Positions 3,692 through 37,832 are shown, numbered from the stretch's first letter. The stretch is DNA of 64,000 bases from Camelus ferus (GCF_009834535.1 NC_045696.1:6450001-6514000); one strand, 5' to 3'. Program-made: numbers and translations. The notes: generated from the sequence alone by a model not told the origin.

Positions 3692-4212
3692 GGAGCGGGC
3701 AGATCCAGCTGTGGCAGTTTCTTCTGGAGCTCCTGTCAGACAGCTCAAACTCCAACTGCATCACCTGGGAAGGCACCAACGGGGAGTTCAAGATGACAGA
3801 TCCGGACGAGGTGGCCCGGCGCTGGGGAGAACGGAAAAGCAAACCCAATATGAACTATGATAAACTCAGCCGGGCCCTCCGCTACTACTATGACAAAAAC
3901 ATCATGACCAAAGTCCACGGGAAGCGCTACGCCTACAAGTTTGACTTCCACGGCATCGCCCAGGCCCTGCAGCCCCACCCTCCAGAGTCTTCCCTGTACA
4001 AGTACCCCTCGGACCTCCCTTACATGGGATCCTATCACGCCCACCCACAGAAGATGAACTTTGTGGCCCCCCACCCTCCGGCCCTACCCGTGACGTCGTC
4101 CAGTTTTTTTGCTGCCCCCAACCCATACTGGAATTCCCCCACAGGAGGCATCTACCCCAACGCTAGGCTCCCAGCCAGCCACATGCCTTCGCATCTGGGC
4201 ACTTACTACTAA
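3692..4212 (+). CDS. ERG: ERG terminal coding exon (ETS DNA-binding domain + C-terminal activation tail); upstream exons lie outside the window
   Basis: Translation [86 protein letters not shown]...[10 protein letters not shown] matches ERG as I recall it, including the ERG-type (not FLI1) C-terminus. It is preceded by a polypyrimidine tract and AG acceptor (tttcctttcccgcctcccAG, 3690-3691; phase 1). Stop TAA at 4210-4212. Confidence 0.97.
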
Positions 4213-7672: not shown

Positions 7673-7816
7673 GGAGGAGGTAATAGCTCAGTGGTAGAGT
7701 GCCTGCTTAGCATGTGCAAGGTCCTGGGTTCAATCCCCAGTACCTCCATTTATAAGTAAATAGATAAATAAACCTAATTACCTGCCCCCCCAAAAAAATA
7801 AAAAATAAAAAATAAA
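7673..7816 (+). mobile_element. tRNA-derived SINE, Vic-1-like (camelid)
   Basis: ggaggaggtaatagctcagtggtagag (A box)...gggttcaatcccc (B box), then taaataaacctaattacctgccccccc and an A-rich tail. Confidence 0.85.
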
Positions 7817-13720: not shown

Positions 13721-13959
13721 AGGACAAACACATAGACAGCCACAGCTTCACAGCCACCAGCAGCACGCTGCTGGAGCAGCGTTTAGCAGCACTGCGGAAC
13801 GTGCTGCCCTCTGACTGCTCCCGGCAAAGGATGCTCCGTTTCCTCTGGTGAGGTGGCTGAACGTTCACTCTCAGTACAATGAGTTTCGGTATTCCCCAGA
13901 AAGCTTTACTTCCTCTACCAAGTGCTCTCTGGGGGTTAGCTACTGTTGATGAATATCTG

Positions 13960-14460
13960 TGCATCATTCTGTCTCTCTCTGGTCCCCTCTATGTCTTCTG
14001 CCTTCAAGAGATAGAGCTTAATTCCCCATCTTTTGAGTGTAGGCTGGGCTTAATGATCTGCTGCTAATAAATAGAAAGTAGCAGAGGCGATGGCGGGTGG
14101 CTTCTGAGATTAGGTGGTAAAAGGCATTGTGACCTTCTCTTTGCCTTCCCTCTTGGATAACTCACTCTGGGGAAGCTAGCTTCCATGTCAGGACACTCAA
14201 GCAGCCCTATGGAGAGGCTCATGGGTAAGGAACCCAGACCTCCTGCCAATAGCCAACCATCCATCCCCGATCAAGTCTTCAGATGACATCATTCATGGTC
14301 AACATTTTGACAAAATTTCATGAAAGATTATGAGCCAGAACCACCCAAATAAGCTGCTTCTGAATTGCTAATGCACAGAAATGTGAAATAATAAATGTTT
14401 GTTGTTTCAAGCCACTACATTTTGGGGAAATTGATGATACTGCAATAGATAACTAATACA
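13960..14460 (+). mobile_element. MLT1F-like MaLR LTR
   Basis: ctcactctggggaagctagcttccatgtc...ataataaatgtttgttgtttcaagccactac...gcaatagataactaataca terminus. Confidence 0.7.
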
Positions 14461-15124
14461 ACTTGCTTTCTCAAGATTGCTGCCTATGGGTTCTGCCCAA
14501 CCTAGCCTATTGCATTAGACTTTAAGAGAGGCTGAGCTGAGACAGCCTGGGTTGACCTCAGACCTGGTGATCCCTCTGCTTCTGAAATATCTTTGTCTGA
14601 TTTTTCTCTCATTCTGTCGACAAGCTATGTGTCAACTCTCTGGTTTTCTGAGGCTAAAGAATATTGCTTAAAGAAATACTTTTCCCACAGATGAAAAGGG
14701 GGGGGGTTACAGGAGCCTAGAACCCTAAAATTCTGGGTTTTGCAGACTGTAGCTGAAACAGTGTGGGTTTCCAAACCCCACAGGCATGCATTGGGTCCTA
14801 CCTAATGTGCTGGCTGTTTGAACTTGGTTATTGTATTTAGCTTCTCGGAAGCTCTCGCTCCTTCTCTGTTGGTCAAATAATAGTTACTTAGGATTCAGTT
14901 TGGCTATGGAAGAAGAAGAGCAATGGTTTAATCAAGGTAGAAGTTTACTCTTCCATGTCAAAATCCAAAAGTCTGGAGCTGGTGTGGCCTCCATGATGTC
15001 GAGAAATCCAGGATCTTTGTATCTTCTTGTTCCACCATGTGTGGTTATTTTGGTCAAATGTTCTAACTAAAGGCTCTAACTCCAAAATATTCACTGAAAA
15101 GCAAAAACTTGGACTTGGACCATG

Positions 15125-15460
15125 TATCCACTAGGATTCTACCAGAAAAACAGAACTAGTTGGATATGAATGAAGACATGAATGTATGTGTGCATGTATT
15201 TCAGGGAATTGGCTTCTGCAGCCGTGGCATCTGGCTGGCAAGGCTGAACTCTAGTGGGCGAGTCAGCTGGATGGAAGCTCTCAGGCAGTCCACAGGCAGA
15301 ATTTCTTCTTCCTCACTTTCGCTCCTAAGGTCTTTCAACTGATTGGATGGGGCCCACCCAGATTATCAGGGACAATCTCCTTTCCTTACAGTGAGCTGAC
15401 TATGGCTGTCAAGCACGTCCACAAGACACCTTACAGTAATACCTAGGTAAGTGTTTGAAT
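15125..15460 (-). mobile_element. MLT2-like (ERVL) LTR fragment
   Basis: ggattctaccagaaaaacagaac...ggtctttcaactgattggatggggcccacccagattatc motif. Confidence 0.6.
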
Positions 15461-17339
15461 AACTGCCAAGAGCACACAAGACATCCCAGGCTGCCGTCCG
15501 GTCTGAGACTGATTTCCCACAAGCTGGTCTCCCTCAAAGCTCCGTGAGGGCCAGGGACAGCTGAGTGCGGGCAGTGGCAAATCAGGGCCTTCCTGCCAGG
15601 TTACAGAAACTACACCTGCCAGGCTTGGATTTCGAGCCCTGGTTCGCCAGGAAAGGGACCTGTGCTCCCCAAACGTGAGTCTGAGCTGCTGGGACAGGGA
15701 TCTAGGGAAAGCCCTGCCACCCCTACGGCTCTTGGATCCTGGCTCCAGGTCCTGCTGGAAGAGACAAGCTTAAGCCCCTCAAAGGGCAGGGGTCCCTCTC
15801 CTGCAGCCTGGTGCCAGGCCCTGCCAGCCCTCCATGGCCGGCCAGCCATGGGACAATGTGTCCACGGGTGACCCACGCGCCCGCTTCTGCTTCTGACTCC
15901 CTGAATTTTCTCCAGTTAATGCCTCCCAGCAGGTCCTGAGTGTGTGCAGGGGGATCGGGCCACGTGTCCTTGGTTGAGTGCCATCTGCAGGCCAGCTGGC
16001 GCCAGTGAGGAAGGGATGAACAGGAGGGACCAAGCACACGTGGCAAGCGTGCTCACTCCCCCAGCGCGCGCCCAGCAGCAGGAAGTCTGAAGGATGCACT
16101 CGTTGCTCTATTAATATGGAAAAAGAGGAAGAAAAGACACTGGTAACTGTCCCTTCTGCCAGCAGGGCTGCCACCAGCACACAGGGCCCCTTTGTGCAAA
16201 TGAGAAAAGGCGCTCGCTTTGGGCAGCCAAACCCTCTGGGTGAAGGGTTCACAACAACGTGGCCTCCCCAGGGTGACACGCCCCTGGGCCAGGGGACAGG
16301 GACTGACCTCGTGTCCGCCTCCACCTGCCCCAGCCCCTCAGCCAGCACCTTTCTGCGGTGCCCCAGGCTGCTCAGAACTGGCCGGACCTGGGGGTCAGTA
16401 CTGGGAATCTTTTGTAACAAGCCTGTGCCCTGTGCTCCCGTTTGAAGGCTGTTTGAAGGCCGAATCTTGAATCTTGGCTCTTCGGAGACCTCTTTCCTGC
16501 ACAGGTGCCTAAACAGCCAAGCTCGAGGGGCTCTGAGCTTGAGACTTTGTGAAGAAGCTGAGAGGATTTGATGACCACACCTGCAATTACATTTTTTAAG
16601 GAGCGCCAAACACTGCAAACTTTATATTTTCATGTCTAGTTGGTCTAAAAGGGATACAAATTGAGAATGTTCCTTCTCACAAGGGAGCTGCAGGGGACAT
16701 CTGATTCTGGATTCCAGAAGCTTCCTATCATGTTGAAAATAGAACCTCAAACTCCTGGCCAGGTCTGCAGGCTCCGCAGGGCTCACCCCCGCGGCCTTCT
16801 CTAGTTTCATTACTCGGCCCTCCCCCTACTCTCCGTCTTTCTCAAACTCATCACCTTTTCCAAGTTCAAGCCTTTGCATGAGCAGGTCCCATTCCCAGGG
16901 CACTTTTTCTCCAGATCATCACAGAGCAGTCGTCTTCTTGTCCTTTGCATCTCGGCGAGGCCATCTCTGATCGCATCTAATTCAGCCTCCTGCATAATGC
17001 CACCTCCCCAGGGGTACTTCCCTCCGGGCCCTTTATCACTGGCGTTCTCCCCTTTTACGTATTTGTCTTTTGTCATCGTCTCATCATTGCTGTTGAAGCT
17101 TCCACGAAGGAGAGTCCTGGCCCCCGGAGGGGTGACTCAGGAAGGGTGTTCTTACCTGTAAGGGACACAGATTTGGAAAGTTCAGGGCTAGGCCTCCAGC
17201 AGGATGCTTCCAGGGGCTTTGTGACCTGTCTTACTCTGTCTCTCAGCTTCATTTCCTCTCTGAGGGTTCAGCCTTAGGTGGGCTTGTTTTAGGCCACACC
17301 AACATAGTTGCCAAAACCAAACTTCAGGCTTAGGGACAA

Positions 17340-17533
17340 TCTCTCAACATCAGCGCTATTGGCATTTGGGGCCGAATGATGGCTGTGGGGCTGCCCTGTG
17401 CACTGTAAGATGCTCTGCAGCATCCCTGGCCTCTACCCGCCAGCATGCCAGTCGTCCCGGACATGACAGCTCAGAAACGTTACCCAGGTTTTCCCAAACA
17501 CCCCTTGAGGAGCACCCCTGGTTGAGAATCACC
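17340..17533. mobile_element. MER20-like DNA transposon
   Basis: tctcaac...ctattggcatttggggc...ctgtgcactgtaagatg...cagcatccctggcctctaccc...ccctggttgagaatcac. Confidence 0.7.
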
Positions 17534-18094
17534 AGCTACATGATGGCCTTTCAGCCGCTCCAGGTGAAAAAGCATCTCTTTTTCCCAACAGTGTGAAGAG
17601 GAGACTTGGAATTAAGCCTCCCTCCTGGACTTTGGTCCCATGCCCTTCCCTGAGCCCATCACTGTAGCCAGAGAAATGGAATACACTGATTGGCCAGCCT
17701 GAATCACTCATGTGCCATCGAGTTGGGGTTGGGTCAATCACACTCCAGCCTTTGATGGTTAAGGAGGAGTTGTCACCCAAAGGGAAATGAGGGAATTGTA
17801 ACCAGAAGGGAAGAATTTTCCTATTCGTCTAAATGCAGTCTCTTTGGAAGAGTCTGCATTGTTATTTTCATGCCACCAGAGGTCAGCACTGGGCCATGCC
17901 ATGCCAATATCATGCCAATGTCATGGTGGTCCTCATACCCTAAGAAAATGCAGATGATTTTAAGTATTTTAATTCACAGAGCAGAGATCCTTAGCTGGGG
18001 CTGGCTACCCTCTAAACTGCATAGCAAAATTTTTTGCATTTGTGAATTTTTCTGGTGAGATGGCCCACTGCTTTCACCAAATCTCCAAAGTTTA

Positions 18095-18322
18095 TAAACA
18101 GTAAGGTCCCACTGCACAGCACAGGGAACTAAATTCAATACCTTCTTATAGTCTATAATGAAAAAGAATATGAAAATAGATAAACCTATACTTATGTATA
18201 ACTGAACCACTATGCTGTACACCAGAAAGCAGCACAACCTTGTAAACCCACTCTACTTCAATAAATTTTTTTAATTTTTAAAAATTAAAAGTAAAAAAAG
18301 AAAAAAAATTTAAAAAAATTAA
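18095..18322 (+). mobile_element. Short L1 3'-end insertion with 16-bp TSD
   Basis: taaacagtaaggtcccactgcacagcacagggaac...caataaa plus A-rich tail; flanked by aaatctccaaagttta (18079-18094) and aaatccccaaagttta (18323-18338). Confidence 0.8.
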
Positions 18323-18344
18323 AAATCCCCAAAGTTTAAATATT

Positions 18345-18497
18345 AAAAGCAACTGATCTAGAAATTGACCTCCTTGTTTCAGGAAGGATGTTTGGTATAA
18401 ATGTCTTGGGAAAATAACTTAAACTCATTTTAATTCAAGTCCTCAGATATACACAGAGAGTATGCAGATTATTATAGCAAAGCTACCCTTCCCAGTA
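18345..18497 (+). repeat. Left copy of 153-bp direct repeat (putative long TSD)
   Basis: aaaagcaactgatctagaaattgac...agctacccttcccagta; ungapped match to 31907-32059 with 11 mismatches by manual count. Confidence 0.95.
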
Positions 18498-18889
18498 AAG
18501 AAGAACAGAGGAAGGGTTAAAACTACCTGCTTCGGGGCTATTTACCTTTAGGAGAGTGGCTTAGGGAAAGTGTCTTAGGAAGTTCAGACTCTGATGAGCC
18601 AAGACTGGAATCCTGCCGATTGTAAACGGCCCATGATGGGGATGCTTCAAGGAGAAGTCTTCTTGGGTTTAGACAGTGAATGCAGGTGTGTCATCCAGCT
18701 CATGGCAACGTCTCAAACCCTTGTGTCATGCCAGGGTCATGCTCTATAAACTGAGGGCATCGGTGTACCCAGGACTTGATATATTTCATCTCATTTCACC
18801 ATCCCCCAAACTGAGCAGATGTGGTTATCTCATTTGATAGATAAGGAAACAAGCTTCAAGACAAGCAAAGCCATTTCTTACGTAGCTGG

Positions 18890-19203
18890 TATCTCAGTTT
18901 GGGCTGCTGTCACAAATTACTGCAGGCTGAGTGGCTGAAACAGCAAACATTGATTTCTCATCGTTCTTGGGGCTGAAAGTCCGAGGGGAGGGTGCCAGCG
19001 TGGCTGGGTTCTTCGTGAGGACCCTCTTCCTGATTTACAGGTGGCGGTCTTCCTGTTGTGTCCTCACGCGGCAGAGAGGAAGCAAGCTCTCTCTCGTTTC
19101 TTCTTTGAAATGAATTAACTCCATCGTGAGGGTTCCACCCTCATGCTCTAATTATCTCCCAAAGGCTCCATCCCCAAAGGCCATCACATTGGAAATTAGG
19201 GTT
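18890..19203 (-). mobile_element. MLT1A-like MaLR LTR
   Basis: gggctgctgtcacaaattac...ctaattatctcccaaaggctccatccccaaaggccatcacattgg. Confidence 0.7.
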
Positions 19204-19259
19204 GGTGCGGATCCTGGGTGCGTGGCTGACCTTGAGTAAATTAATTGACCTGTTTGTGG

Positions 19260-19870
19260 TCTATCCATACGATGGAACATTATTCAGGTTTTAAAAATAA
19301 TGAAATTCTGACACATGTTACAACAGGAACTTTGAAAACATGCTGAGCCAAATAGACCAGTCACAGAAGGAGAGATACTGTATGTTCACTTCAGGGAGGT
19401 ACCTAGGAGTCAGTCATGGAGACAGAAGGTAGACAAACAGATGAACATCAAGTTCATGCTGTGCAGCCCGGGGAACTGTATTCAATACCCTGCAGTAACT
19501 TATGGTGAAGGAGAGCATGAAACGAATACATGCACGTCCATGAAAGACTGACGCGTTGTGCTGTGCACCTGAAACTGACGCAGCGTTGTACACCGGCCAT
19601 ACTCCAATTAAAAATATATATATATATATATGAAAATTAGAATAGAGGTTTTAAAGGGCTGAGGAGTCAGTGTTTAATGGGGACAGGGTTCAGTTTGGGA
19701 AGATGAGAAAGTCCTGGAGACGGATTGTGGAGATAGGTTGTATGACCGTGGGGGTGAATTTTACACTCAAATTACCTTTAATGCCAGTGAACTTTACATT
19801 TAAAATAGTTAAAATGGTAACTATTAACTTAAACATAGTTAAAATGGTTTATATATTTTTTGATAAAACA
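19260..19870 (+). mobile_element. Old L1M 3' end with a nested younger L1 3' fragment (~19430-19630)
   Basis: tatccatacgatggaacattattcag...tttaatggggacagggttcagtttggg...aaaatagttaaaatgg, interrupted by an ...ctgtgcagcccggggaactg...(AT)n segment. Confidence 0.6.
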
Positions 19871-22800
19871 ATTTCAAGAATGCCCAAAAAAGGCTCTCAA
19901 AATCCAGTAACCAAATAATCCTTGAAGGCAGTGTATTTTTAAAAAATCCAAATTAAAGGAGAAAAATCCACGAGGAACAATAGCGAAATTTTAGATAAAG
20001 AGAAAGGGCATGACTGACTTCTCCTTTTGCCCCGGGCTCCACGAAGGCTCAGCCTGCCTCTGAGAGTCACCCTTCTCTGAGAGCTGACATCCTGGTCACA
20101 GCACGAGTGTGGTTTCTCACTCGGGTGGCAACCCCGCCAAGGCACAATTGTTCTCACTTCTCAGTTATATAAACTGAGCCTTCTTGGGGTTAAGGCACTT
20201 GCCTGCAGTCAGTCCTGTGCCTCTGGCCTCTGCAGACCGACCTCTCCAGCTGTGTCCAGCTGAGGAGGAGGTGGCCGCGGGCTCAGAATGGAAGCCTCCC
20301 TGAGAAGAGCCTCTGTGCAGGTCCGAGGGCGAGCTGGAGGTCTCCGTCCTGCCCCGAGGCTCACGGGGAGCAGGCTAATGGGTGACTTTTCCTGCTGTGA
20401 CTCTGCACTCATCTCTTTTTAAATTTCATGTTCTTTCTGATGCTGTGATCCTTCTAGGTCTGCAATAAACTGTAATTAATTGTTATTAATAAATATGTAA
20501 ATCATTGTTGGTGAATGAGTGAATGCATGAATGAACAAAATAAAAGTCTCACCAGTTTAACCCTGAGAAAGAACACACAGCCTTCTTGGCCGCTGTCTTG
20601 GAAATTTGTGCCTGGGGTAGCTGTCGCTTGAGAATTTTGTAGGTTGAAATGACAAAGCGTACAGATGTTGTGACGCTTTTAAAGCACCATATATTAAATA
20701 CATCTCTCTCTAAACCCTCGCTGGAGGTGGAGACAGAGCAATACATATTCTTTCACTTCTACTTCTCTTCACAAGTGGGTAAATTTCTGTATTAGTCACC
20801 CAACACTTACACGTAAGATGTGTTTGCATTTGAGGTGTCCACTAGCCGCACAGACAGCTGAGCTGTCAGACACCCCACTCACGGACAGACGAGCTCGTGT
20901 TTGTGGTCCGAAGCCATAGACTCTTCCCCTGGTTAAAGAGCCTTTTGTCTTGCAAAACAGGTCTAGGGCGGGCCCCCCAAGGGGCCTCTGTGGTTCCTTG
21001 TGCTCCTCTGAAACAGGGGACTTCCAGGGACAACAAGGTAGAGGGAGCAGTGACGGAACAGGTGGGAACCGTGTGTGTGCAGGAGACACACCTCCTCTGC
21101 CCTCTGGTCGTGCCCTCCTGGCTTTCAGGTTTCTGGCCCCAGAGAGCTAACTGCACAGACGCTCCTGTTCACTCAGCCCGGGCTGCTCTAGGTCCTTGCC
21201 TTTTCGCCTGCGCTGTGCCTTCAGCCAGAAATGCCTCTGCCCGCTTCCACTCCCTCTGCTCCTACCCCATAACCAGCGAAAGACCTTTCCTGGCTCAGGT
21301 CCAGTGCCAGCGCGGACACAGGCCGACCGAGACCTGATGAATCAGAATCTGCTTTGTGACAAGACCTCCAAGGGGTTCGCAGGCCCCTCCAAGTGTGGAA
21401 AGCCCTGTAGAGAACTCCTGCTGGTGCTTCAGTACTCAGCTCAGGGCCACCTCCCCCAGGGAGCCCTCCCTGACCTCCCACCTCACCCGAGGTTGCTGCA
21501 GGCAGTCTGGGCGCCGGTGCAGAGCCAACAGTGAGTGTGTAGGCCTCCTTCACCAGCACTCCTGGGCCCTGAGTCCGTCTCTCCACAGCCCGCACACCCT
21601 GCTGGAGGAAACCTAGGGTTCACCTTGGTCTCCCCACGAGTAGCGTCCTCACAGCTCCACTCGGGTAGCCAGCGCCTCACACTTGGGAATCCTCCCCCTC
21701 CCCTCCAGCCCCTCCCGTACCTGCCCTTGGAGTCCCTGTGGTGGGACCCCCAGGGGTGAGACCACTGATCCCGAGGGCCATCAGGGATGGCAGACACCTG
21801 GGGAGCCCAAGTGCTCGCCTGCTCAACCCTCTGTGCCCCAGAGATGAAGGCTTTCACGGGGTGTCACTCAGGGACGCTTGGCTGGATTTTTTCAGGCTTC
21901 CTCTGATGAGATTTGTTAAAAGTTCCTTGAAGTAGAACAAAAGTACACAGGGTTCTTAGAAAAGTCTAGGAGTCGTTCCTCAGTCTTCTTCTCTGACCGT
22001 CCAGTCACCTGCACACGGTCTTTGTGTTCTCCTGGATCTGTGTTTCACCCCCCAGCACAGCCCCCAGTGCTCCACGCAGACCCCTGTGAGCCCCCTTCCT
22101 GCAAACTCCCCCCTCCCCCACCCCACCTTCCGCTCTCTCCCCGCCCACAGAGACCTGTGTAGGATACACATCACTCCGTGTCCTCGGCCTCCAGCCCTCT
22201 CCCCCAGGTCTGCACCCTCCCCTGGTGTCCCTACCCTGCGCTAGAGAGATGTCTGTGCAGCGGGCCTGCTCCCCGCCCCCTCTTCCCCTCCCCGTCCTCT
22301 TTGCCCCATTTCCCTGCCCAGAAACCCAGCTTCTCAGGTCTCTATACTCCTGTCCTCTCTGCCTGGAGTACTCTGCCCCCTGACTTTCCCAGGCCAACTC
22401 CTCTTCCCTTTTAAAATCTCAGCATAAATACCACCTCCTGGTTTCGCATGTTGCACGTCACCCACTGGAGCTGTCTGCAGAGCAGAGATTGCCATCCTTT
22501 GTCTCTTTTTTCTTTATTATCTGAGCTCGTCCTTCCCTGGGTCCATGGGGAGGGGGCCACAGGCCTCACCTGGCTGCCTTTTTCCATCACTCCAACACCT
22601 ATACGTTGTCAAAGGCCACAGACACTCCAAACATACTAAATAAGTGGATGTGAATGAAGGCAATAGACACACACACACATTGGATCAAATAGGGTCAAGT
22701 GTGCTGGTCGTTCTCCAGGTTCTACGGGCCTTTTCTGGGCTGCTCTGCACCGGAGGCTGACTCCTGCCTGCCCTCCCCGGGTCCCCTGGGTGGCTGCCTT

Positions 22801-23144
22801 TTGCTCCAGCAGTAAAAGGAGGGACAGGACAGAGGCGGGGAAGGTTTCCCTGTCCCCCTGACGGCCCCTCGCTGAGCTCAGATGCCGTCTTCGCCCCTCA
22901 TCCTCCAGACCCAGCAGTGAGAAGAGCTTCCTTACTGCCGGCACCTCAGAGCCCTCTTCCTCGGTCCCCCCACATCCCTGATACAGCTCAGGTGACTGCC
23001 TGCATCTCAGCGCCCTCAGCTGCACCGTTTGGATGAAGGGTTTCTAGTTGGACCCTTACTGAATCATCAGGTACCTCTCATTTTCTGTCGATATGATCTA
23101 TGACTCTTTTGTCTATATACAAATTATATACCAAAACAACACCA

Positions 23145-24095
23145 TTTTTATTTTCAACATTTATTTAATCACTTAAAAAAAATGAAACTCTAACTTTACA
23201 TTTTCAGCTACCCACAAAGCAACTGAATAGGCTGACTATCTGTACTGTGGTTGGCGTGTGTGTGTTTGCCATCAAGAGAATACTTTTTAATTTTGACTTC
23301 ATAAATTTTAGAAATGTAAAAACAGAGAAAACTTTTTAACAAAATAACAACAGTTAAGAAAAAAATTACAAAACAGAAAGACATGGCTGCAAAATCTTAA
23401 GTACTCCAATCTGTGAGTTTAGGATTAATCTAATCCGATGAATTTAGGACTAAACTGTGAATTTAGGCGTACACTAACGAAGATTACCTAGTTTGAACGT
23501 GGTGCTATTTTGTTAACATTTTTGTTTGGGTTTTGTTTTGTTTTCACATTTTTTAAAATCAACAGAAGTTGACTAAGGTAAGTGTTAAATTACCTCCTCA
23601 GTTTTGTAAAACTAGCCATTGCATACAGAAATGGTCTTTATTGTGTTCAACTTTTCCATTCATGTCAGACTTAATGGATGCTTCAAGTCATCGTGGGCAT
23701 TCAACTCATCAAAATAAAATACTTATTATGTATCCATGAGAATTATATTATTGGGTCTACATTTAAATAACACTACCATAGAGTTTTCATGCTATTCTAA
23801 TAAGAGTAATTGTGGCATCAATTTAGCAATAATAGCTTAACTAAACAAGGAACAAACGAAATTCCTTCAGCAGAAATACATGCAGATGGAAATGAAAATT
23901 TGAGAAAATCTTATAAATTATGTTTTATCTACTTAGAAAAGAACAATTAAGTTATAGTAGCTAAATATAAAGAGAAAAATCAAAATTACTTTCAAAAGAG
24001 AGCACACGTGCGGATGTTGTGCTGTGGTTGTGAGCGTCTGGACCGACTGCTGTGAGCTGAGTCACACCTGCAGGTGACCGCAGGTCCCTGCTCCC
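23145..24095 (-). other. 3' UTR of the cTAGE-like retrogene, with candidate poly(A) signals
   Basis: AT-rich tract after the stop. Minus-strand AATAAA at 23160-23165 and 23147-23152, followed by a GT-rich element (ggtgttgttttgg). Homologous to the UTR of the second copy at ~27750-28120. Confidence 0.6.
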
Positions 24096-25574
24096 TCACC
24101 GCGGTGCCTTCCTCCTTCCCGGGGGGCCTGATGGCCCAGGGCCCCCCCCCCCCGACACTGGCGGGCCCCTGGGGGCTGCGGGCGGAGCAGCAGGAGCACC
24201 AGGGCCCCTGGGGGGAGGCTGGACGTTGGACTCGACCTGGGCCAGCATCTGCCGGGTGCGGTCACTCTCCTGTCGCAGCTCCTGGAGCTTTCTCTTGGTG
24301 GCCACCGCCGCCAGCCAGCCTTCCCCAGCTCTTTTCTCTTGGAAGTGGATCTTCTTGAGGTGGTAGGAGGTGGTTCTCTCCAATTCCTCGCCTGCGTCTT
24401 GGGCCATCTTCTTGCAGAGGTCGCGCATCTGACGTGTGGAGTCCAGGTCTCTACACACGTGGGTGAGTTGCTTCTCAACTTGTAAGCAGCGAGCTTCCAC
24501 CTGGGACAACTCTCTGTGAAGCTGCGTCACACAGTCGTCATAGGCGTCAGGCAGACTTTGAAGCTTCAGCTTCAGCTGCTCAATCTCACCATCGAGCCGG
24601 GAATTCTCACCCTTCACAGAGGCTTCTTCTGTTTGGAGACTTGTAACTTGTGCTGTAAGCTCTTGGATCATCTGCTTTTCTTCCCGCAGGCGCCTGGCTG
24701 TTCCCTGATGTTCCTCTTGGGGACGGGGAAGGCGCACACTGCGGCCAGCATCACCAGTGACGCCCTTCAGATCGCCCTCCGCCCCGGGGACAGGGCGATG
24801 GCCACCTTCTGCCCCCTCCTTCTGCTGGATGTCTGCGCGCCCGCCACCCGCGGGGCCCCCACGGAGGCGGGGCGAGGGGCTGGCCTTCAGCAGGTGGTCC
24901 GCGACGGATCTGAGTCGGCTGATTCTGCCTTGCAGGCCCTGCGCCTTTCCTGCCTTCGGCCGCTCCAGCCTCCCGCCCAGCTCCTCCTTTCCCTGGACTT
25001 GTCGCTCCCTTCTTCCAATTTCTGGGTGAAACCGCTCTGGACTCTCTGGAAAACCAACCCTCTTATTCAGATCATTCTTTTCTGTCTTCTGAGCTCGTTC
25101 TCCATTCTCCTCTGATGGCTTTAAGGTGTGTTTTCCGTCAGTGACTCGGGAGAGTTGAGGAGGCTGGCTCTTCAGTGCCTTTTCTATAAAGGCAACAGTG
25201 CCCTCAAACAATGTCCTTCTCAGGTTTTCTTTCAAGGCCCAAAAGCATAAGACTTTTAACAAGGGAGGACTGGCCTCCGGCCCAGGTGGCTTGAGGGCTT
25301 CGTGGGCCTGAGTCATCGGGCCCATAGTCTCTTCACATTTTCCACAGACTTCGTCTCGGGCTGAAGACGTTTTTCCAAGCGACCTCCCCCTTCTTAAAGC
25401 GTACCGTCCACTTCCTGCCAGGACCAGCACCCCAGCACACACCAGGCTCTCCCAGCGAAGCACAGGCAGACCCGGGACGTGTGTCAGGCTTTCGTAAACA
25501 AGCAGCAGAGCGCCCCACAGGGGCTCCAGGATCAGCTGGAAAGTGGCCCCGCGGGCAGCCTGCAGGACCTCCAT
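24096..25574 (-). CDS. Intronless cTAGE5/MIA2 (CTAGE family)-derived retrogene, 492 aa: N-terminal hydrophobic/TM segment, coiled coils, short Pro-rich tail
   Basis: Uninterrupted ORF with ATG in perfect Kozak context (GCCGCCATGG). GLPVLRWESLVCAGVLVL resembles cTAGE5 GFPWELVICAAVVG. LQTEEASVKGEN...EELERTTSYHLKKIHFQEKRAGEGWLAAVATKRKLQELRQE is collinear with cTAGE5 LQTEQASLQSEN...[41 protein letters not shown] (recalled sequence). No introns, whereas the parent is multi-exon. Confidence 0.85.
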   Translation of the reverse strand: MEVLQAARGATFQLILEPLWGALLLVYESLTHVPGLPVLRWESLVCAGVLVLAGSGRYALRRGRSLGKTSSARDEVCGKCEETMGPMTQAHEALKPPGPEASPPLLKVLCFWALKENLRRTLFEGTVAFIEKALKSQPPQLSRVTDGKHTLKPSEENGERAQKTEKNDLNKRVGFPESPERFHPEIGRRERQVQGKEELGGRLERPKAGKAQGLQGRISRLRSVADHLLKASPSPRLRGGPAGGGRADIQQKEGAEGGHRPVPGAEGDLKGVTGDAGRSVRLPRPQEEHQGTARRLREEKQMIQELTAQVTSLQTEEASVKGENSRLDGEIEQLKLKLQSLPDAYDDCVTQLHRELSQVEARCLQVEKQLTHVCRDLDSTRQMRDLCKKMAQDAGEELERTTSYHLKKIHFQEKRAGEGWLAAVATKRKLQELRQESDRTRQMLAQVESNVQPPPRGPGAPAAPPAAPRGPPVSGGGGPGPSGPPGRRKAPR

Positions 25575-27749
25575 GGCGGCGAGGCCTCCGCAGCTCTGCC
25601 TCTGAGGACCAGCGTCCTGTGGGCCCAACTGCCCGCTCAGAACCCTGCGGTGTTCCGTCTCCAAGGTAAGCAAGCGCCTGCCCGCCAGGGCGGGCAGCTG
25701 GGCCGGGGGAGGGGAGGCCAGCCAGGTCCTGGTCCGCAGTTGTCCCTAACGTCGCTGGCAGTGGAAAGCGACCTCACTTACCCAGGCCCTGGGGGAGGGG
25801 GAGGGCTGAGCACAGCCTGGAGCTGGGCCACTCGAGGCCCGCCTGGCCCCACAGCAGACCTAGGGGGTCAAAGCAGGGCCAGGCCGGTCCCGTTCTGTGC
25901 CTAAGAGGAGGTCAGGGCAGAGTGGTGGGACCCTGTTCTGGTGAGAGCCAGGCTCCTGAGTTAAGGGTTCCCTCTGCTGCAGAGACAGCTGGTCCTGCCC
26001 CAGAGGTCCCGGGGATCCCCCTCCTCTGAGGCCCCCCTCCCCCTTGTGTGGTCACTGTGGGAAGACAGGGCCCCAGTCTGAAAGGTCTTCTCGACGATAT
26101 TACGTGTGAGACCAGGATTCCAATGGTAACAACTCAGGAGGAATCAGTCTGAATTTCAGGGTCTTACAATCCTGTGTTATCTGTGGAGCCAGCATGTTCC
26201 TGTTGAATCTAAGGCTCCTAGAAGGGGCTGATTCTGTTCCAGGAGGGACACAGTGACATGGGCTGTGTCCCCAGATGGTCCTGCCATTTCAGCTCGTACT
26301 TCCCAAGGTGGGCCTGAGGGGGGTCTCCCGTCCACTGAGCCATCTTCAGAAGTGGCCTCTGTGTAAGGGGACAGGCCTTTCTTTTGGCCCCGTTTATTTC
26401 ACTAAACCACGTCGTGCTCCCCTAGTATCTCTCTGGCACACCCGGGCTCAGAGACTCCTAGTCAGACTCTTGGATCTGTCCCAGCACCTCATCCTCCATT
26501 CCTTTACTGCACAGGGAACCAAGGGAACTGGCATCTGAGACCTTTTCAAGGGTCCCAATGGATGCCAGGCCCAAGAGGGCTGAAAGGGTGGGCTGGGGGC
26601 AGGAACCCTCCCAGGGAAGTCGGGCCTTTTCAGGGCCGTCAGAACCACGTCTGCAAGTGCACGTGGTTGATCTTTAAAATAGATCACGCGTGGGTGAAAG
26701 AAATGGCAGTGTTCTCCCGAGCACTCAGCTAGCCCTAAGATGAGAGAAACAGCATGAAAACTATTGGCCCATCAAGAGGTCCAGGGTGTTTTATTGCCTA
26801 AAACAGCTCGGGGCCAGACGGTATATAGCGAGAGAATTCCAGAGAAGTTCTGGACGGATAGCACTTCTCCAGTGCCTTCTGGGGACGGGAATTTAAAGCA
26901 GCAGGAAGTGGTCTTCCCTCGCCCCCCCCATCCTCCCCCTCCCTCCCCTGTCTGCACCTCTTTTGTCTTCTCTTCAGTTCCTCCCCTCTGTTCTTCTGTC
27001 TTCTTATTTCCTTCCTCTTTTCTGTTTTTAAAAACATGTTCTAAAATTTTTGATATTGTTACTACAAGCATATGTCATTTGTAACTCTTAGGTGACACCT
27101 GACAGGTAGCCAGGTGGGGGTTTGGTCCCCCAGATCTCACAGTGTCCCCTGAGGTCTGCCCCACTGTCTCCAGGATGTGAGCCCCTCCTTCCTGCTTCTT
27201 CTGCTGAGGGAAGTGGAAGTACCACGTCCTGGACCAGCCTGTGCCTCCTGCGGGTCAGCACTCGGGGCCCAGGCTTCATTTCGTCCCAGGGTCTTCTCCG
27301 CTTACTCTGTTCCCAGGGTCCCCTTCCTGTGCAGAGTGATGCCAGCCTTTCCTCCTCAGTGTCCCCTTTGAGCTGCCCCAACCTGGTGTGTGTGTGTGTG
27401 AGTGTGTGTGTAATAGTGTGTGTGTGTGAGTGGGTTTGTTTGCCATGAAGGGAAGACTTTAATTTTGACTGCTAAGTATTAGAAATAGTTAAACCACACA
27501 CAGTATTTTAAGCAAAATAAGTTTACGGCAAAGGTGGACGTTTCATTTAAATCAAACTGTGCATCTGAAATATGCGTAGTTTACTGCACAGAAACTATAC
27601 CACAACAACGTTGTTTAAAAAAATGTTAAAGAAGAAACCAATGACTGAGAAATATCAATGCCCCTAAACTAATCAATGAATTTACCGCCACCCGAATAAA
27701 AATGTTACAGAACTTGAAGGTTGTGTCGTCGTTTTCAAGGTTTCTTTTG

Positions 27750-28568
27750 CATTCATTTTTAAAACCAGTTTAAATTCCTCCCTGCAGATATTAAATCACT
27801 CATACAGGTTTCTCGTAGCAGGTCCTCGCAGACAGAAACGGTCTGCATGGTCTTGAACGTTTCTCTCCGTGTCAGAGTTTGAGGAGGCATAAATCATGGT
27901 AGACATTTCATTTAAGTCAAAATATAAAATTTACACTAATTCTAAAGGGTCCATTGATGGAGAAATAATGTATTCATAAGCATCATATGAACAAATTTGT
28001 ATTTAAAAATACTAACTTAAAATTACATACCAAACTTCTATAAGAGCAATTGCGGCATCAGTTAAACAGCAGGAGCTAAACTGAAAAGAAATACATCGAC
28101 ATTAATATAAGAAAGAAACATGCAGATGTTGTGCTGTGGTTATGAGCGTCTGGACCGGCTGCTGTGAGCTGAGTCACACCTGCAGGTGACCGCAGGTCCC
28201 TGCTCCCTCACCGCGGTGCCCTCCTCCTTCCCGGGGGGCCTGATGGCCCAGGCCCCCCCCCCCCGACACTGCTGGGCCCCTGGGGGCTGCGGGCGGAGCA
28301 GCAGGAGCAACAGGGCCCCTGGGGGGAGGCTGGATATTGGACTCGACCTGGGCCAGCATCTGTCTGGTGCAGTCACTCTCTTGTCGCAGCTCCTGGAGCT
28401 TTCTCTCGGTGGCCGGCACCGCCAGCCAGCCTTCCTCAGCTCTTTTCTCTCGGAAGCGGATCTTCTTGAGGTGGTAGGAGGTGATTCTCTCCAATTCCTC
28501 GCCTGCGTCTTGGGCCATCTTCTTGCAGAGGTCGCGCATCTGACATTGGAGTCCAGGTCTCTACACAC
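27750..28568 (-). pseudogene. 5'-truncated second copy of the cTAGE-like retrogene (C-terminal coding part plus 3' UTR)
   Basis: 28123-28568 is ~95% identical to 24011-24458 (about 22 substitutions and 2 single-base indels by manual count). It ends abruptly at 28568. Weaker UTR homology extends left to ~27750. Confidence 0.9.
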
Positions 28569-28599
28569 TTTAGGAATGATTTCTAGGCAGAGGGAAACA

Positions 28600-29120
28600 G
28601 TAGCTTAGGATTAATCAGGGTGCACCCTCAGATCAAGTGACGAAAGTTTGCAGGAATTACATTGGGACAGGCTAACACCATGTGCCTCCTATCACGACGC
28701 CCTGAAAACAACAATTTCTTTGGTTTTCTGGACAAAAATACATAACTGGAATCTAATCATGAAGAAATATAAGACAAATCCGAAGCGAGAAACAGTCTAC
28801 AAAATTCCTGGCACATATGCTTCAAAACTATGAAGGTCACAAAATTCCTTTAGAAGGGAGCTGAGGGATTGTTTCCGATGAAAACCCCAGGGAACATGAC
28901 ATCTAAATGCAATGCATGATCCTCGACTAGATCCTGGGCCAGAGGGAAGACAAAACACTCAGAGATGATAGTATCTGAAAAACTGACAAAATTTGAACAT
29001 GGACAGTGGGTTAGATAAGCATTATGGCAGTGTTAAATCCCAGCTTTGGTCGTTGTACTATTGTCAGGAAATAGTAAAGTGTTCGTGGGGTCAACAGGCT
29101 TTATGGCTTTAACTTGGTCA
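28600..29120 (+). mobile_element. Old L1MC-like 3' fragment
   Basis: cataactggaatctaatcatgaagaaa...acatctaaatgcaatgcatgatcctcgactagatcctgggccag motif. Confidence 0.55.
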
Positions 29121-29602
29121 AAAATTGTCAGTGACTGACGGTTTCTCGACTGGCCTTCGTCCTGCTGGGATAGCGCAGCAGCGGCTCACGCCAGGTCTTC
29201 GCTCACTTGCTGGGGGGGATTCTCTTCTCAGTGAGAAAACACAAGATCGTACTAACGCTCCAGGGTGGTCCAGATCTGCCCTGGGCCCGCTGGGGCCAGA
29301 ACGCCTCCTCCAAGGGCGTATCAGGGACCACGGAGCGGTCTCACTGCCTGGACCGGGTGGGGGTCCTCCTCCAGTTAACTCCACCTTCAAAGGCCCCCTT
29401 CCTCCTTCTCCCTTGCCGTTAAAATGTCTGAAGTGGTTTTGTGCCTGAACAGCTTCTGGCTCCCGGGCTCCCCACGGGCTTCTGTGAAAAGCTCTGTCTC
29501 TGAATGCCCACAATGGCAACGACCATTTATTCTCTTATAAAACAACAGCAGTTTACTCTCTTGTGATCCTGAGGGCCAGAGCTCTAAAATCAAGGTGTCA
29601 AA

Positions 29603-31910
29603 CACATTTGATAAAATTCAACACCCAGTTATGATAAAAACTCTCACCAAAGTGGGTATAGAGGGAACATATCTCAACAGAATAAAAGCTATATATGACA
29701 AACCTACAGCCAGCATAGCACTCAACGGTGAAAAGCTCAAAAGCTTCCCACTAAAATCTGGAACAAGACAAGCCTGCCCGAATCACAACTCCTATTCAAC
29801 ATAGTCCTGGAAGTCCTAGCCACAGCAATTAGGCAAGAGAGAGAAATAAAAGGGATCCAAATTGGAAAAGAAGAGGTAAAATTGTCACTATATGCAGATG
29901 ACATGATACTATATATAGAAAACCCTAAAAGGTCCACACAAAAACTACTAGAGCTGATTGAAGAATTCAGCAAGGTAGCAGGTTACAAGATTAACGTTCA
30001 AACATCAGTGGCATTTCTTTACACTAACGATGAATCAACAGGAAAAGAAAGTAAAGAAACAATCCCCTTTAAAATAGCACCCAAAGTAATAAAATACCTA
30101 GGAATAAATCTAACCAAGGGGGTGAAAGACTTATACATGGAGAACTATAAAACACTGATTAAGGAAATTAAAGAAGACTTAAAAAAATGGAGTGATATCC
30201 CAGGCTCCTGGATTGGGAGAATGAATATTGTTAAAATGGTCACACTGCCCAAGGCAATCTACAGATTTAATGCAATCCCTATCAAATTACCCAGGACATA
30301 TTTCACAGAACTAGAACAAAGCATTATAAAATTTATATTGAACCACAAAAGATCTAGAATTGCCAAAGCATCACTGAAGAAAAAGAAAGAGGCTGGAGGA
30401 ATAACTCTTCCAGACTTCAGACAATACTACAGAGCTACAGTCATCAAGACAGCATGGTATTGGTACAGAAACAGACATATAGACCAATGGAACAGAACAG
30501 AGAGCCCAGAAATGAACCCACAAACTTTTGGTCAACTAATCTTCAACAAAGGAGGCAAGAATATACAATGGAATAAAGACAGTCTCTTCAGCAAATGGTG
30601 TTGGGAAAGCTAGATAGCAGCATGTAAAGCAATGAAGCTAGAACACTCCCTTACACCATACACAAAAATAGACTCAAAATGAATCAAAGACTTAAACATA
30701 AGACAAGATACAATAAACCTCCCAGAAAAAAATATAGGCAAAACATTATCTGACATACATCTCAAAAATGTTCTCCTAGGACAGGCAACCCAAGCAATAG
30801 AAATAAAAGCAAGAATAAACAAATGGGACCTAATGAAACTTACAAGCTTCTGCACAGCAAAGGAAATCATAAGTAAAACAAAATGACAACCTACAGAATG
30901 GGAGAAAATTTTTGCAAATGAAACAGACAAAGGCTTGATCTCATATGACTCTTATTAAGCTCATATGACTTAATAAGGAAAAAACAAACAACCCAATCCA
31001 AAAATGGGCAGAAGGCCTAAACAAGCAATTCTCCAAGGAAGAAATACAAATAATCAATAGGCACATGAAAAAATGCTCAGTAGCACTAATTATCAGAGAA
31101 ATGCATGTCAAAACTACAGTGAGGTATCACCTCACATCGGTCAGAATGGCCATCATTCAAAAGTCCACAAATGACAAATGCTGGAGAGGCTGTGGAGAAA
31201 AGGGAACACTCCTACACTGCTGGTGGGAATGCAGTTAGGTGCAGCCACTGTGGAAAACAGTATGGAGATTCCTCAAAAGACTAGGAATAGACTTACCATA
31301 TAACCCAGGAATTCCGCTCCTGGGCATATATCCAGAAGGAACCCTACTTCAGGATGACACCTGCACCCCAATGCTCATAGCAGCACTATTTACAATAGCC
31401 AAGACATGGAAACAGCCTTAATGTCCATCAACAGATGACTGGATAAAGAAGAGGTGGTTTATTTATACAATGGAATACTATTCAGCCATAAAAAAGGCAA
31501 CATAATGCCATTTTCAGCAACATGGATGTTCCTGGAGAATGTCATTCTAAGTGAAGTAAGCCAGAAAAGCAAATCTAAAAAAAAAAAAAAAGAACATAAA
31601 TACACAATAGAAACAGACTCATAGACATAGAATACAAACTTGTGGTTGCCAAGGAGGTGGGGGGTGGGAAGAGACAGATGGGAGTTCAAAATTTGTAGAT
31701 ACTGACAAGCATATAAAGAATAGATAAACAAGATTGTACTGTATAGCACAGGGAAATATATACAAGATCTTGTGGTAGCTCACAGTGAAAAAAAAATGCG
31801 TCAATGAATATATGTATGTTCATGTATAACTGAAAAATTGTGCTCTACACTGGAATTTGACATAACATTGTAAAATGACTATAACTCAATAAAAAAAAGT
31901 TTAAAAAAAA
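29603..31910 (+). mobile_element. 5'-truncated, relatively young L1 (ORF2 RT/C-terminal region, 3' UTR, polyA)
   Basis: Translations FDKIQHP...[26 protein letters not shown]...KWCWES and QPLWKTVWRFLK; frameshifts/stops present; AATAAA at 31888-31893 followed by an A tail. Confidence 0.97.
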
Positions 31911-32059
31911 GTAACTGATCTAGAAATTGACACCCTTGTTTCAGGAAGGATGTTTGGTATAACTGTCTTGGGAAGATTACTTAAACTCATTTTAATTCAA
32001 GTCCTCAGATATACCCAGGGAGTATGCAGAAAATTATAGCAAAGCTACGCTTCCCAGTA
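31907..32059 (+). repeat. Right copy of 153-bp direct repeat, directly after the L1 poly(A)
   Basis: aaaagtaactgatctagaaattgac...agctacgcttcccagta matches 18345-18497. Confidence 0.95.
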
Positions 32060-34018
32060 TAGAGACAGTCAGCGGTCTTCCACAGAGGTAGAGGCCCAGA
32101 ATTGGTCCCCACAGTGAGGATATAAAGGGCAGACATGGACTTTACCCCCATCCACTCTCAACTGGTTGTGCAAACCACACTGAAGTGAACAGTCATGGAT
32201 AAGGGAGCATTGGCAGAAGCCAGAGGCAGTAAGCTGATTCATATTTTAAAGGAACTGTTTGCAAATATTCAGAACAGCGATTTCTACCCTACATGCAAAT
32301 AAAACCAACTCGGCGCATCTAAAAATTACTGATGCCCAGACCCAGCTTTCAGAAATTCAGATTTCACTCATCCGTGGTCGAGCCCAGGGGTTGGCCCTTT
32401 GAAAGAGCTTTTTAGGTGCATCTGCTGGGCAGCTAGGGCTGGGGACCATGCGTGTGAGGTGGGGGTTGGGTGTGCTTGGAGAAGACAATATTTTTGGAGG
32501 AGTTTTAGGGGGAGAGAGGGGACACTAGAGAGAGAAAAGAGATCTGCGACCACTGCCTGCTGCCCGGGACCAGGGACTTCAGCAGGATAAGTGGGTAAAG
32601 CTTGGTTGTATCATTTGTGTTTGTAAATTGAGCTGTGTTGTGTATTAGGTGGCTCTGCCTCCCCTCCTCCCTTCCAGCGACAGTCAGTAAAAACCCACAT
32701 TACTTGTCAAAGAGCGTGGATTCAGCTCCGAGTCTTTTGGATGTATTACTACGTAGGATGGCTCTAAAAGGAGAAGCCACTTTTATTCAGGTAAACCCGC
32801 ATTGCTAATTCACCGGGTCTCCATCATGAGGCAACGCTCTCAGAATCCTCCTTCTGTGGATGGGGAAGCTGGGGCTCAGAGAGGTTAAGTGACCTGCCCA
32901 AGGTCACACAGCTCCAAAGTCCAAGATTCACACCCAGGCCTGAGAGCTGAGGTCTCCTGTCAAAGGGGAGCCAAGTTTCTCCCCCGCAGCTGTCAGGACT
33001 CACAGATATTTGGCACTTTCTGTTTGTTGTTTGCTCCTTTCCCTTCGTCTCTTCTAAATCCTGTCTCCCTGACCACTTGTAACTTACTTTACATCAGCTC
33101 CCACAGGGTAAACTATGTGTCCCCTGAAGGGTGGATCATCACTTGCTTTCTTTTTTCCTCTGGGGAAGAGGCTCTAAGTCGTGTCATCAGCCCCCATTTT
33201 GCCAGCCCCTCCAGGAAGGTCGTCACCGCCTGGTGGGCCAGCAGCCCCTGACAGAAGGCAGGCAGTGGGGGTGTGGGACCCGACCCGGGACTTCTGTCAC
33301 CCTGAGGGCCGGCCAAGCAGTGTATGAGAATGTAAACTGTCACTTACCTCTGTCCCTGCCGGAGGCTTCCAGCTTGTCCCACTGTCCCTCTCCTGGGACT
33401 GCCCAGACCTGTACCCTTCTCTGGGGTTGGGCAGGAAAGGGGACTCTTTTCTTTAAACCAGGGTCAGGACCTTGATAAGGCAGCTCTGCTCATCAGGGAT
33501 CATGAGGTTTCCTGTTTCTTCCCTGCTCTGGAATGCAGCGAGATTTGGGGAGGCCAGCATGCTGCCAGATGGCTGCCCCCCCGCACCAGGAGCCTGGCAG
33601 GGCCTGGACAGTGACCCTGCATTGAAGCTGTGGACGCACGGTTCTTTAGGACGTCCCTGTGGGTCCCTGTATGTGTTTGACTGTGTGTGGGTCTGTGTGT
33701 GTCTCTGTGTGTCTGTGTGTGTCCCTGTGTGTATCTGTAGGTGTGTCCCTGTGTGTGTGTGTTTTGCGAGCTACAATCTCAGAGCCCTAGTTCCTCTGAA
33801 ACATCTTTTCAGTTCATAGCGATGGGGAGAAGTTTGGAGTTGCTCCCCTCTTTACTGCAGAAGGCCCCATGAAGAAGCCCCAGTGTTAGAAGTGTTTCTA
33901 GAACACACGGTGTGGTCACGGAGCCTAGAAAGCCGCGGGCAGGGAAGACCTCTGGGCCGGGCCGGAGGTGGCGAGGTGTCTCCGTGGGCGACGTGGAAGC
34001 GCGGGGACTCGTCCCAGC

Positions 34019-36982: not shown

Positions 36983-37832
36983 GGTCCATTTGCTTATTTT
37001 TGCTTTTATTTCCATTACTCTAGGAGATGGACTGAAAAAATATTGCTGCGATTTATGTCAAAGCGCGTTCTGCTTATGTTTTCCCCTGGGAGCTTTATAG
37101 TACCTGGTCTTACATTTAGGTCTTTAATCCATTTTGAGTTTATTTTTGTATATGGTGTTGGAGAATGCTCTGATTTCATTCTTTTACAGGTAGCTGTCCA
37201 GCTTTCCCAGCACTGCTTATTGAAGAGACTGTCTTTTCTCCATTGTACGTTCTTGCCTCCTTTGTCATCAGCTAATTACCATAAATGCTTGAGTTTATTC
37301 TGGGCTTTCTACCCTGTTGCATTGATCTATGTGTCTGTTTTTGTGCCAGTACCACACCATTTTGATTATTATAGCTTTGTAGTACAGTCTGAAGTCAGGG
37401 AGTGTGATTCCCCCTGCTCTGTTCTTTCTCAAGATTGTTTTGGCTATTCTGGGTCTGCTGTGTTTCCATACAAATTTTAACATTTTGTTCCAGTTCTATG
37501 AAAAATGACATTGGTAATTTGATAAGGATTGTGTTGAATCTGTAGATTGCCTTAGGCAGTATGGCAATTTTAACAGTATTGATTCTTCCAATCCAAGAAC
37601 ACAGTATGTCTTTCCATCTATTTGTGTTGTCTTCAATTTCTTTCATCAGTGTCATAGTTTTCAGAGGACCTACTGTATAGCACAGGGAACTAACTATATT
37701 AAACATCTTGTAATAATCTATAATGGAAAAGAATCTTAGAAAGAATATATATGTATAATTGAATCATTTTGCTGTACACCCAAAATTAACACAACATTGT
37801 AAATCAACTATATTTCAATTACCAAAAAAAAC
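36983..37832. mobile_element. L1 with inverted structure: minus-strand ORF2 fragment (36983-37662) joined to a plus-strand 3' end (37663-37832)
   Basis: Minus ORFs [22 protein letters not shown]... and [35 protein letters not shown]; then aggacctactgtatagcacagggaac...caactatatttcaat plus A tail on +. Confidence 0.85.

Follow-up and report, generated by a model that had tools for sequence, protein, structure and literature searches.

How did 11.1 kb of genomic DNA bearing an intact gene come to lie, next to a truncated L1, between the two copies of one very long target-site duplication? The locus is in Camelus ferus (GCF_009834535.1), in a stretch of 64,000 nucleotides, contig C1 6450001-6514000, which is here called the window, and the assembly searched with it amounts to 2.09 Gb. 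The arrangement is probably the outcome of one target-primed L1 insertion, with a very long target duplication, during which the other DNA end copied DNA from nearby on the same chromosome. A first-pass annotation of the window had proposed a single L1-initiated event with a very long duplication and some 11 kb of foreign DNA, and that proposal has gained support, as the donor of the foreign DNA is found and its ends are the two junctions. The parts of the insertion, numbered from the first nucleotide of the window, and the older element beside it are as follows.

18100..18344, plus strand: 3′ end and A-rich tail of an older 5′-truncated L1, the L1 itself reaching to about 18262; two further L1s of the window have 3′ ends that align with it
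18345..18497, plus strand: left copy of the target-site duplication, from an ungapped alignment and a genome search; homology possibly starts at 18331
18498..29600, plus strand: captured segment of 11.1 kb, an inverted copy of C1:6605999-6617110
29601..31906, plus strand: 5′-truncated L1 of about 2.3 kb, from an RVT_1 match, translations and related genomic copies
31907..32059, plus strand: right copy of the target-site duplication, directly after the L1 tail

The repeat copies and the target site

Re-aligned without gaps, positions 18345-18497 and 31907-32059 differ at 11 of 153 positions (93% identity), just as had been described in the first pass at the same coordinates. The match extended by BLAST, 18331-18501 against 31896-32063, has 171 columns at 90.6%, so that the length of the duplication is between 153 and about 170 bp. 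Is the unit simply one copy pair of an interspersed repeat, which would have deprived the initial proposal of its foundation? That is ruled out, since the unit was matched only twice in the 2.09-Gb assembly, both candidates (2/2) being the ones in the window, though counts from such whole-genome searches are lower bounds. A metagenome scan with a 24-mer common to both copies gave 0 matches.

The left copy is preceded by tatt and starts with aaaag, and the TT|AAAA-like cleavage site that had been noted for it, tatt|aaaag, can be read directly; the alternative start at 18331 would give a weaker site, cccc|aaag. What was missed in the first pass is that this site is at the end of another element. 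Upstream of the left copy (about 18100-18262) there is a distinct, older L1 whose A-rich tail of about 80 bp extends to 18344 and ends in tatt|aaaag. The A-rich tail of the older L1 thus supplied the endonuclease-type target, and the younger L1 integrated at that tail's end. The usual signature of L1 integration is a duplication of about 7-20 bp around the L1 alone, whereas here 153 to about 170 bp flank the L1 together with 11.1 kb of non-L1 DNA.

The L1 at the right junction

That the right copy adjoins the poly(A) of a 5′-truncated L1 had also been recognised, and it is borne out by a short A-rich tail that reaches 31906 and abuts the repeat, and by an RVT_1 match on 29732-30613 (40.6 bits against a cut-off of 29.6) to the C-terminal part of the reverse-transcriptase domain. 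From the translations, the 5′ end of the element falls inside the reverse-transcriptase domain of ORF2, and a frameshift is present; Pfam searches of the L1 open reading frame 29903-30613 and of 29604-29801 gave no match. Set against six related copies, it is clearly homologous to L1 from 29605 onwards and may be so from 29600, with 29601-29604 being of ambiguous origin. Related L1s are abundant (18,434 first-look candidates in the genome), and the window element is 87-93% identical to 20 genomic copies. Inspection of its 5′ junction by eye revealed no short direct repeat of its own, as the first pass had held. The presence of poly(A) at an endonuclease-type site leads to target-primed reverse transcription as the mode of entry.

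Two further sets of repeats in the window may be recorded here. A third L1 fragment, at 36986-37831, has pieces on both strands and is about 75% identical to the L1 just described, and short repeats at 7673-7811 and 57179-57440, 80% identical to each other, are probably a short interspersed element (SINE) type.

The donor

Where did the 11.1 kb come from? A search of the genome for the donor of 18498-29600, which the first-pass annotation had proposed as a check, led to C1:6605999-6617110 on the same contig, 126.4 kb downstream of the insertion and in inverted orientation. Window positions 29600-18482 are 98.16% identical to it over 11,130 columns. The genome hit lists are not exhaustive, and with the whole segment as query they gave only older cTAGE-like paralogues of its central part; with the two outer parts as queries each gave one near-identical inverted copy, the only other copy among the matches listed. 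The donor ends coincide with the end of the left repeat and with the 5′ junction of the L1, and beyond them neither an L1 nor the 153-bp unit is present. The nearest L1 at the donor is about 2 kb away and only 75% identical, and the flank at the other end of the donor from that described next is unique sequence.

Which of the two copies is ancestral? Across the right-hand boundary the donor continues into an interspersed repeat of long terminal repeat (LTR) type, presumably MLT1-like, and genome matches to that repeat start right at the boundary. In 7 of the 8 other copies of the LTR repeat that were fetched, the last 50-75 nucleotides of the duplicated segment align upstream of the boundary point, and in 5 of the 8 the score exceeds that of every one of 200 shuffled controls. 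One old LTR element therefore spans the boundary in the donor but is cut off in the window, which makes the donor the ancestral copy and that in the window its derivative.

The LTR element of the donor has a peculiarity of its own. In C1:6605920-6606000 the donor is without the 59-76 nucleotides that separate the two LTR parts in 7 of the 8 other copies. The gap begins 3 nucleotides beyond the segment boundary; it may be the scar of a break in the donor at the time of the event, or it may be chance.

The absence of an L1 next to the donor disposes of one option that had been offered, a long 5′ transduction. In L1 transductions, as here, non-L1 DNA travels with an L1 inside one set of duplications, but the transduced DNA must adjoin the source L1, and the camel donor continues into the LTR-type repeat without an adjacent source L1, and the window L1 starts inside the reverse-transcriptase domain of ORF2, whereas a 5′ transduction requires a full-length L1 into which transcription runs from upstream. 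A 3′ transduction is likewise rejected: the L1 3′ ends that precede the two 153-bp copies are about 68% alike (mean column identity in the three-sequence alignment, 69%), and neither copy is followed by the second poly(A) that such an origin would leave. Could the donor once have carried an L1, a read-through transcript of which was retrotransposed in a manner akin to 5′ transduction, with the donor L1 being deleted afterwards? The 59-76-nucleotide gap 3 nucleotides beyond the boundary could be a deletion scar. However, no remnant of an L1 is left there, the nearest one is only 75% identical and about 2 kb off, an RNA of 13.4 kb and a clean loss of 2.3 kb would be needed, and an L1 truncated inside the reverse-transcriptase domain would be unable to drive its own transcription, all of which makes this a very improbable history.

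Equally improbable is that an assembler misplaced the 11-kb copy or made a false join inside the L1. Large near-identical inverted repeats are certainly difficult to assemble, but the two 11-kb copies differ at 184 positions and in 27 gap columns, 11 differences separate the repeat copies, at the left junction two unique sequences meet with microhomology, and assemblers produce neither diverged duplications nor the geometry of poly(A) and endonuclease site. In 20 of 23 listed sequencing runs, from 3 organisms and 9 studies, 0.83-0.90 of the words sampled from 13000-22000 are present, a result that is uninformative on the junctions.

One event or several?

If a single event generated everything between 18345 and 32059, the repeat copies, the copied segment and the L1 should be of one age. 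The repeat copies differ by 7.2% (11/153; 95% confidence interval 3.6-12.5%), half of which is 3.6%. The outer 100 bp at both ends of the segment differ from the donor at 18 of 198 positions, 9.1% (Fisher p = 0.56 against the repeat). The L1 departs from the majority base of 20 related copies in 98 of 2213 columns, 4.4%, the others doing so by 2.1-4.5% with one outlier at 10.2%, and as this distance includes subfamily differences it is an upper bound on age. A comparison of L1 divergence with half the repeat divergence had been suggested in the first pass; the figures, 4.4% and 3.6%, agree well enough, and the ages of repeat, segment edges and L1 are concordant and fit one event. The Jukes-Cantor distance between the repeat copies is 0.076 and mammalian substitution rates are 1-2.2e-9 per site per year, from which a rough date for the event of 17-38 million years ago follows.

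The interior of the segment is another matter. It differs from the donor at just 166 of 10,904 positions (about 1.5%; Fisher p = 3e-5 against the repeat). However, the differences are far from evenly spread, being over-dispersed in 44 bins (chi-square 168, p = 9e-17) and still patchy in the 20 bins outside the gene-family core (p = 9e-13), and runs identical between window and donor reach 696 and 648 bp where about 319 is expected. Gene conversion within the cTAGE-like family to which the segment’s gene belongs is directly evident. At 24161-24373 the main gene copy of the donor holds 13 variants of the partial copy (donor C1:6607031-6611642), and in the surrounding 500 bp, 23956-24458, identity of the window copy is 97.6% with a paralogue at C1:6063876, 400 kb away, against 95.2% with the donor from which it came. 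Patchy divergence together with conversion so demonstrated is the reason why the interior is taken to be homogenised and the edges are used for dating.

An alternative is that two or more events were involved, either an old L1 with a 153-bp duplication into whose 5′ junction the 11 kb was inserted much later, or a replication-based duplication that was followed by the L1. The interior divergence, far below that of the repeat or of the L1, is what such a history would give, and the clusters of mutations at the junctions could also stem from error-prone repair synthesis. Geometry is against it. The end of the left repeat and the end of the right repeat’s homology fall on one and the same base, there is no L1 remnant to the left of the segment and no repeat remnant to its right, so that a later insertion would have had to hit one exact bond, that between repeat and L1; moreover, the 153 bp are the sole target duplication of the L1, and the young-looking interior is accounted for by conversion. 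Several events are accordingly an improbable explanation.

Several points nevertheless weigh against one event as set out here. At face value the interior would make the 11-kb copy younger than both L1 and repeat, and one event can be upheld only if most of the 11 kb has been homogenised by gene conversion. The left 1.2 kb, for which there is no third paralogue, differs at 50 of 1195 positions (4.2%), which is below the 7.2% of the repeat, albeit not significantly (p = 0.10). A duplication of 153 bp is about 10 times the usual length, and the empty site is reconstructed rather than seen. The microhomology at the left junction, described below, was assessed with a 16-mer the choice of which involved some freedom. 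Finally, the captured strand and a KCNJ15-type gene nearby agree in sense, which fits an RNA template equally well.

Apart from the question of age, 13 of the 98 positions compared in 18482-18581 differ from the donor, mostly as donor G against window A (or donor C against window T), a cluster confined to the 100 bp proximal to the junction. Along the full length of the segment, however, transitions are balanced (T>C 36, C>T 35, G>A 32, A>G 25), so that no APOBEC-like bias is claimed.

A possible course of events

Similarity to the donor begins not at 18498 but at 18482, inside the left repeat, where there is an imperfect microhomology of 11/16 positions with one gap. Among 16-mers drawn at random from the window, 11/16 was attained in 299 of 200,000 trials (0.0015). 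The join between the segment and the end of the L1 cDNA has at most 1 nucleotide of microhomology.

The insertion could then have come about as follows. The A-rich tail of the older L1 would be nicked by L1 endonuclease, in its bottom strand, at tatt|aaaag, and about 2.3 kb of L1 RNA would be reverse-transcribed. A break in the top strand about 153 nucleotides downstream would leave long 3′ overhangs, and the reciprocal end, ...GCTAC(C/G)CTTCCCAGTA-3′, would use the imperfect microhomology to pair with DNA of the same chromosome at a distance of 126 kb. From there about 11.1 kb would be copied in inverted orientation, whether through repair synthesis or through the capture of an end or a fragment of DNA, and the copy would be joined to the 3′ end of the L1 cDNA. 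Filling-in of the overhangs would give the 153-bp duplication, and so the product would be, in order, 153 bp, the 11.1-kb copy with its cTAGE5-like gene, the truncated L1 with poly(A), and 153 bp again. Later the two inverted 11.1-kb copies exchanged sequence through gene conversion. Of all this, the anatomy, the donor, the direction in which it was copied, the agreement of the ages and the conversion are observed, whereas the sequence of molecular steps and a template of DNA are inferred.

Was the template for the 11.1 kb DNA or RNA? The same single L1 event might have involved a switch of the reverse transcriptase to a nascent unspliced RNA, for instance of an intron of the KCNJ15-type gene, with 11.1 kb being copied and the cDNA end annealing by microhomology to the reciprocal overhang. 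The gene in question is represented by a coding exon of IRK (KCNJ15) type on the minus strand, whose position, C1:6522108-6522533, falls between the target and the donor. The strand captured runs on into the sense strand of the L1 and shares the sense of that gene, the donor is upstream of the exon, and the segment is unspliced and collinear with the genome. Relevant to this, nine experimental insertions are described as holding sequences from two RNA transcripts, and those in which both are in the same orientation are attributed to template switching (PMC11702581), in an account that also mentions chimeric retrocopies of the U6-L1 type. However, agreement of strand has a 50% chance, a transcribed, intronic donor is presumed from the extent of human KCNJ15, and the 59-76-nucleotide gap in the donor DNA at the boundary would be left unexplained. 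Reverse transcription would have had to yield 13.4 kb in all, and that is well beyond a full-length L1. Nor would an RNA template need a donor in cis within 150 kb, the chance of which is 1.4e-4 for a random genomic donor. A template switch to RNA thus seems unlikely, and a DNA template is favoured on account of the cis donor within 150 kb, the 13.4-kb total that the RNA route would demand, and the possible scar in the donor.

The scar, if such it is, invites a bolder version of copying from DNA, ‘cut, copy and paste’: the donor would have been broken at the boundary, the gap being what remains of the break, and the L1 cDNA together with the long reciprocal overhang would have captured DNA, to give a fixed, gene-bearing inverted duplication whose derived copy has the open reading frame. 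As a complete account it is offered tentatively and with some doubt.

The cTAGE-like gene and its relatives

Between the repeats there are, as had been noted, an intact cTAGE-like gene and a partial second copy, both on the minus strand.

24096..25574, minus strand: intact intronless cTAGE5/MIA2-like open reading frame of 492 amino acids, from the listing of open frames and protein similarity
28071..28568, minus strand: partial second copy, the 3′ part of a cTAGE-like gene, 92% identical to 23956-24458 and present in the donor too

The 492-residue product has 99% identity with ‘CTAGE family, member 5-like’, as a protein of Camelus ferus is named, and 58% with hippopotamus ‘cTAGE family member 15-like’; the proteins it resembles, at 99%, 80% and 58%, carry the names CTAGE family member 5-like, MIA2 or cTAGE family member 15-like. 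A Pfam search with it gave no family above cut-off, only sub-threshold matches of coiled-coil type. Between the window frame and the donor copy there are 9 synonymous and 26 non-synonymous differences, and this comparison carries no sign of purifying selection. The donor copy is disrupted by a CGA>TGA stop at codon 434 and by a 5-bp deletion at codons 477-478, so that it is the derived copy that is open.

Is this how the family spreads? The first-pass annotation had suggested that L1-linked capture may be the route of its dispersal in the lineage, and for that suggestion no support was obtained. Five other cTAGE-like loci, at C1 6.043, 6.061, 6.752 and 28.3 Mb and on C13, have 2.2-5 kb in common at 83-96% identity, and at the ends of homology neither an L1 poly(A) nor an abrupt junction was seen in any of the five (0/5), homology instead fading gradually. 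An L1-mediated origin is rejected for them; a sixth locus, on C34, was matched and its homology ends were left out of the inspection. Two cTAGE-like copies besides that of the window have open frames of at least 484 residues, C1:6043565-6045016 (96% amino acid identity to the window frame) and C13:48368520-48369977 (76%), and there are stops in the copies at C1:6.064, 6.753 and 28.3 Mb and on C34.

Neighbouring genes

One further feature of the window concerns the setting of the insertion.

3706..3942 (C1:6453706-6453942), plus strand: one terminal exon encoding a complete ETS domain, from an ERG/FLI1-type gene (PF00178, 127 bits)

The PNT domain of an ERG/FLI1-type gene is upstream on the same strand, at C1:6434647-6434859. 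The insertion is about 14 kb downstream of the ETS exon, and the minus-strand cTAGE-like frame, about 20 kb downstream, is convergent with that exon. The earlier statement that the event moved a gene next to ERG is therefore broadly right, given the ERG/FLI1-type ETS exon, but the gene was copied rather than moved. Other neighbours are an ETS1/ETS2-type gene at C1:6.07 Mb and IRK genes at 6.52 and 7.00 Mb, a gene order that agrees with that of human chromosome 21, ETS2-ERG-KCNJ15-KCNJ6. The 11-kb inverted repeats, 98% identical and 126 kb apart, bracket the KCNJ15-type coding exon and are a possible substrate for inversion polymorphism.

Relation to known events

What precedent is there for such an event? 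Extremely long target duplications with 5′-truncated L1s were obtained in the HeLa assays of Gilbert et al., as stated by Kojima 2010 (PMC2912911). For tumour genomes, L1-mediated deletions and duplications are reported and explained by pairing of L1 cDNA with a distant broken end (PMC7058536). Experimental L1 expression is described as leading to complex insertions with canonical hallmarks. The kind of event is thus known from cell culture and tumours; the camel locus is a new member of it, one that is fixed in the germline and bears a gene. With these L1-associated templated insertions the camel locus has in common a polyadenylated L1 at an endonuclease-type site as one breakpoint, nearby non-L1 genomic DNA between the L1 5′ end and the other target end, target duplication around the whole unit, and junction microhomology. 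It is unlike them in being germline-fixed instead of somatic or in culture, and in having an 11.1-kb gene-bearing segment, a 153-bp duplication and a donor that is 126 kb away, inverted and possibly scarred.

Two other systems resemble it in part. In chimeric retrocopies formed by template switching, of the U6-L1 type, a 5′ partner is likewise fused in the same orientation to a 5′-truncated L1 within one duplication. The 5′ partners known for them are RNAs, small or processed, that may originate anywhere in the genome, whereas in the camel the partner is DNA, 11.1 kb long, unspliced and rich in repeats, with its source in cis at a distance of 126 kb. Fork stalling and template switching, and microhomology-mediated break-induced replication (FoSTeS/MMBIR) share with the camel event a nearby template in cis, inverted orientation, junction microhomology and more mismatches close to the junctions. 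However, a camel junction consists of L1 cDNA with poly(A) at an endonuclease site, and therefore the initiating lesion was a retrotransposition intermediate and not a stalled fork.

Significance

L1-linked rearrangements with templated genomic DNA have so far been described mainly in tumours and in cells over-expressing L1. The camel locus is a sequence-resolved and datable germline example in which both junctions, the donor and the target duplication have been kept and a whole gene was duplicated, by a route distinct both from retrocopying and from transduction. The inverted 11-kb pair that resulted demonstrably exchanges sequence and could mediate inversions. Duplication, non-L1 DNA, truncated L1 with poly(A), and duplication again, in that order, is a pattern for which other genomes can be searched. 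If the ‘cut, copy and paste’ version is true and general, aborted L1 integrations would seed mammalian segmental duplications, and with them inverted-repeat pairs that drive gene conversion and inversions.

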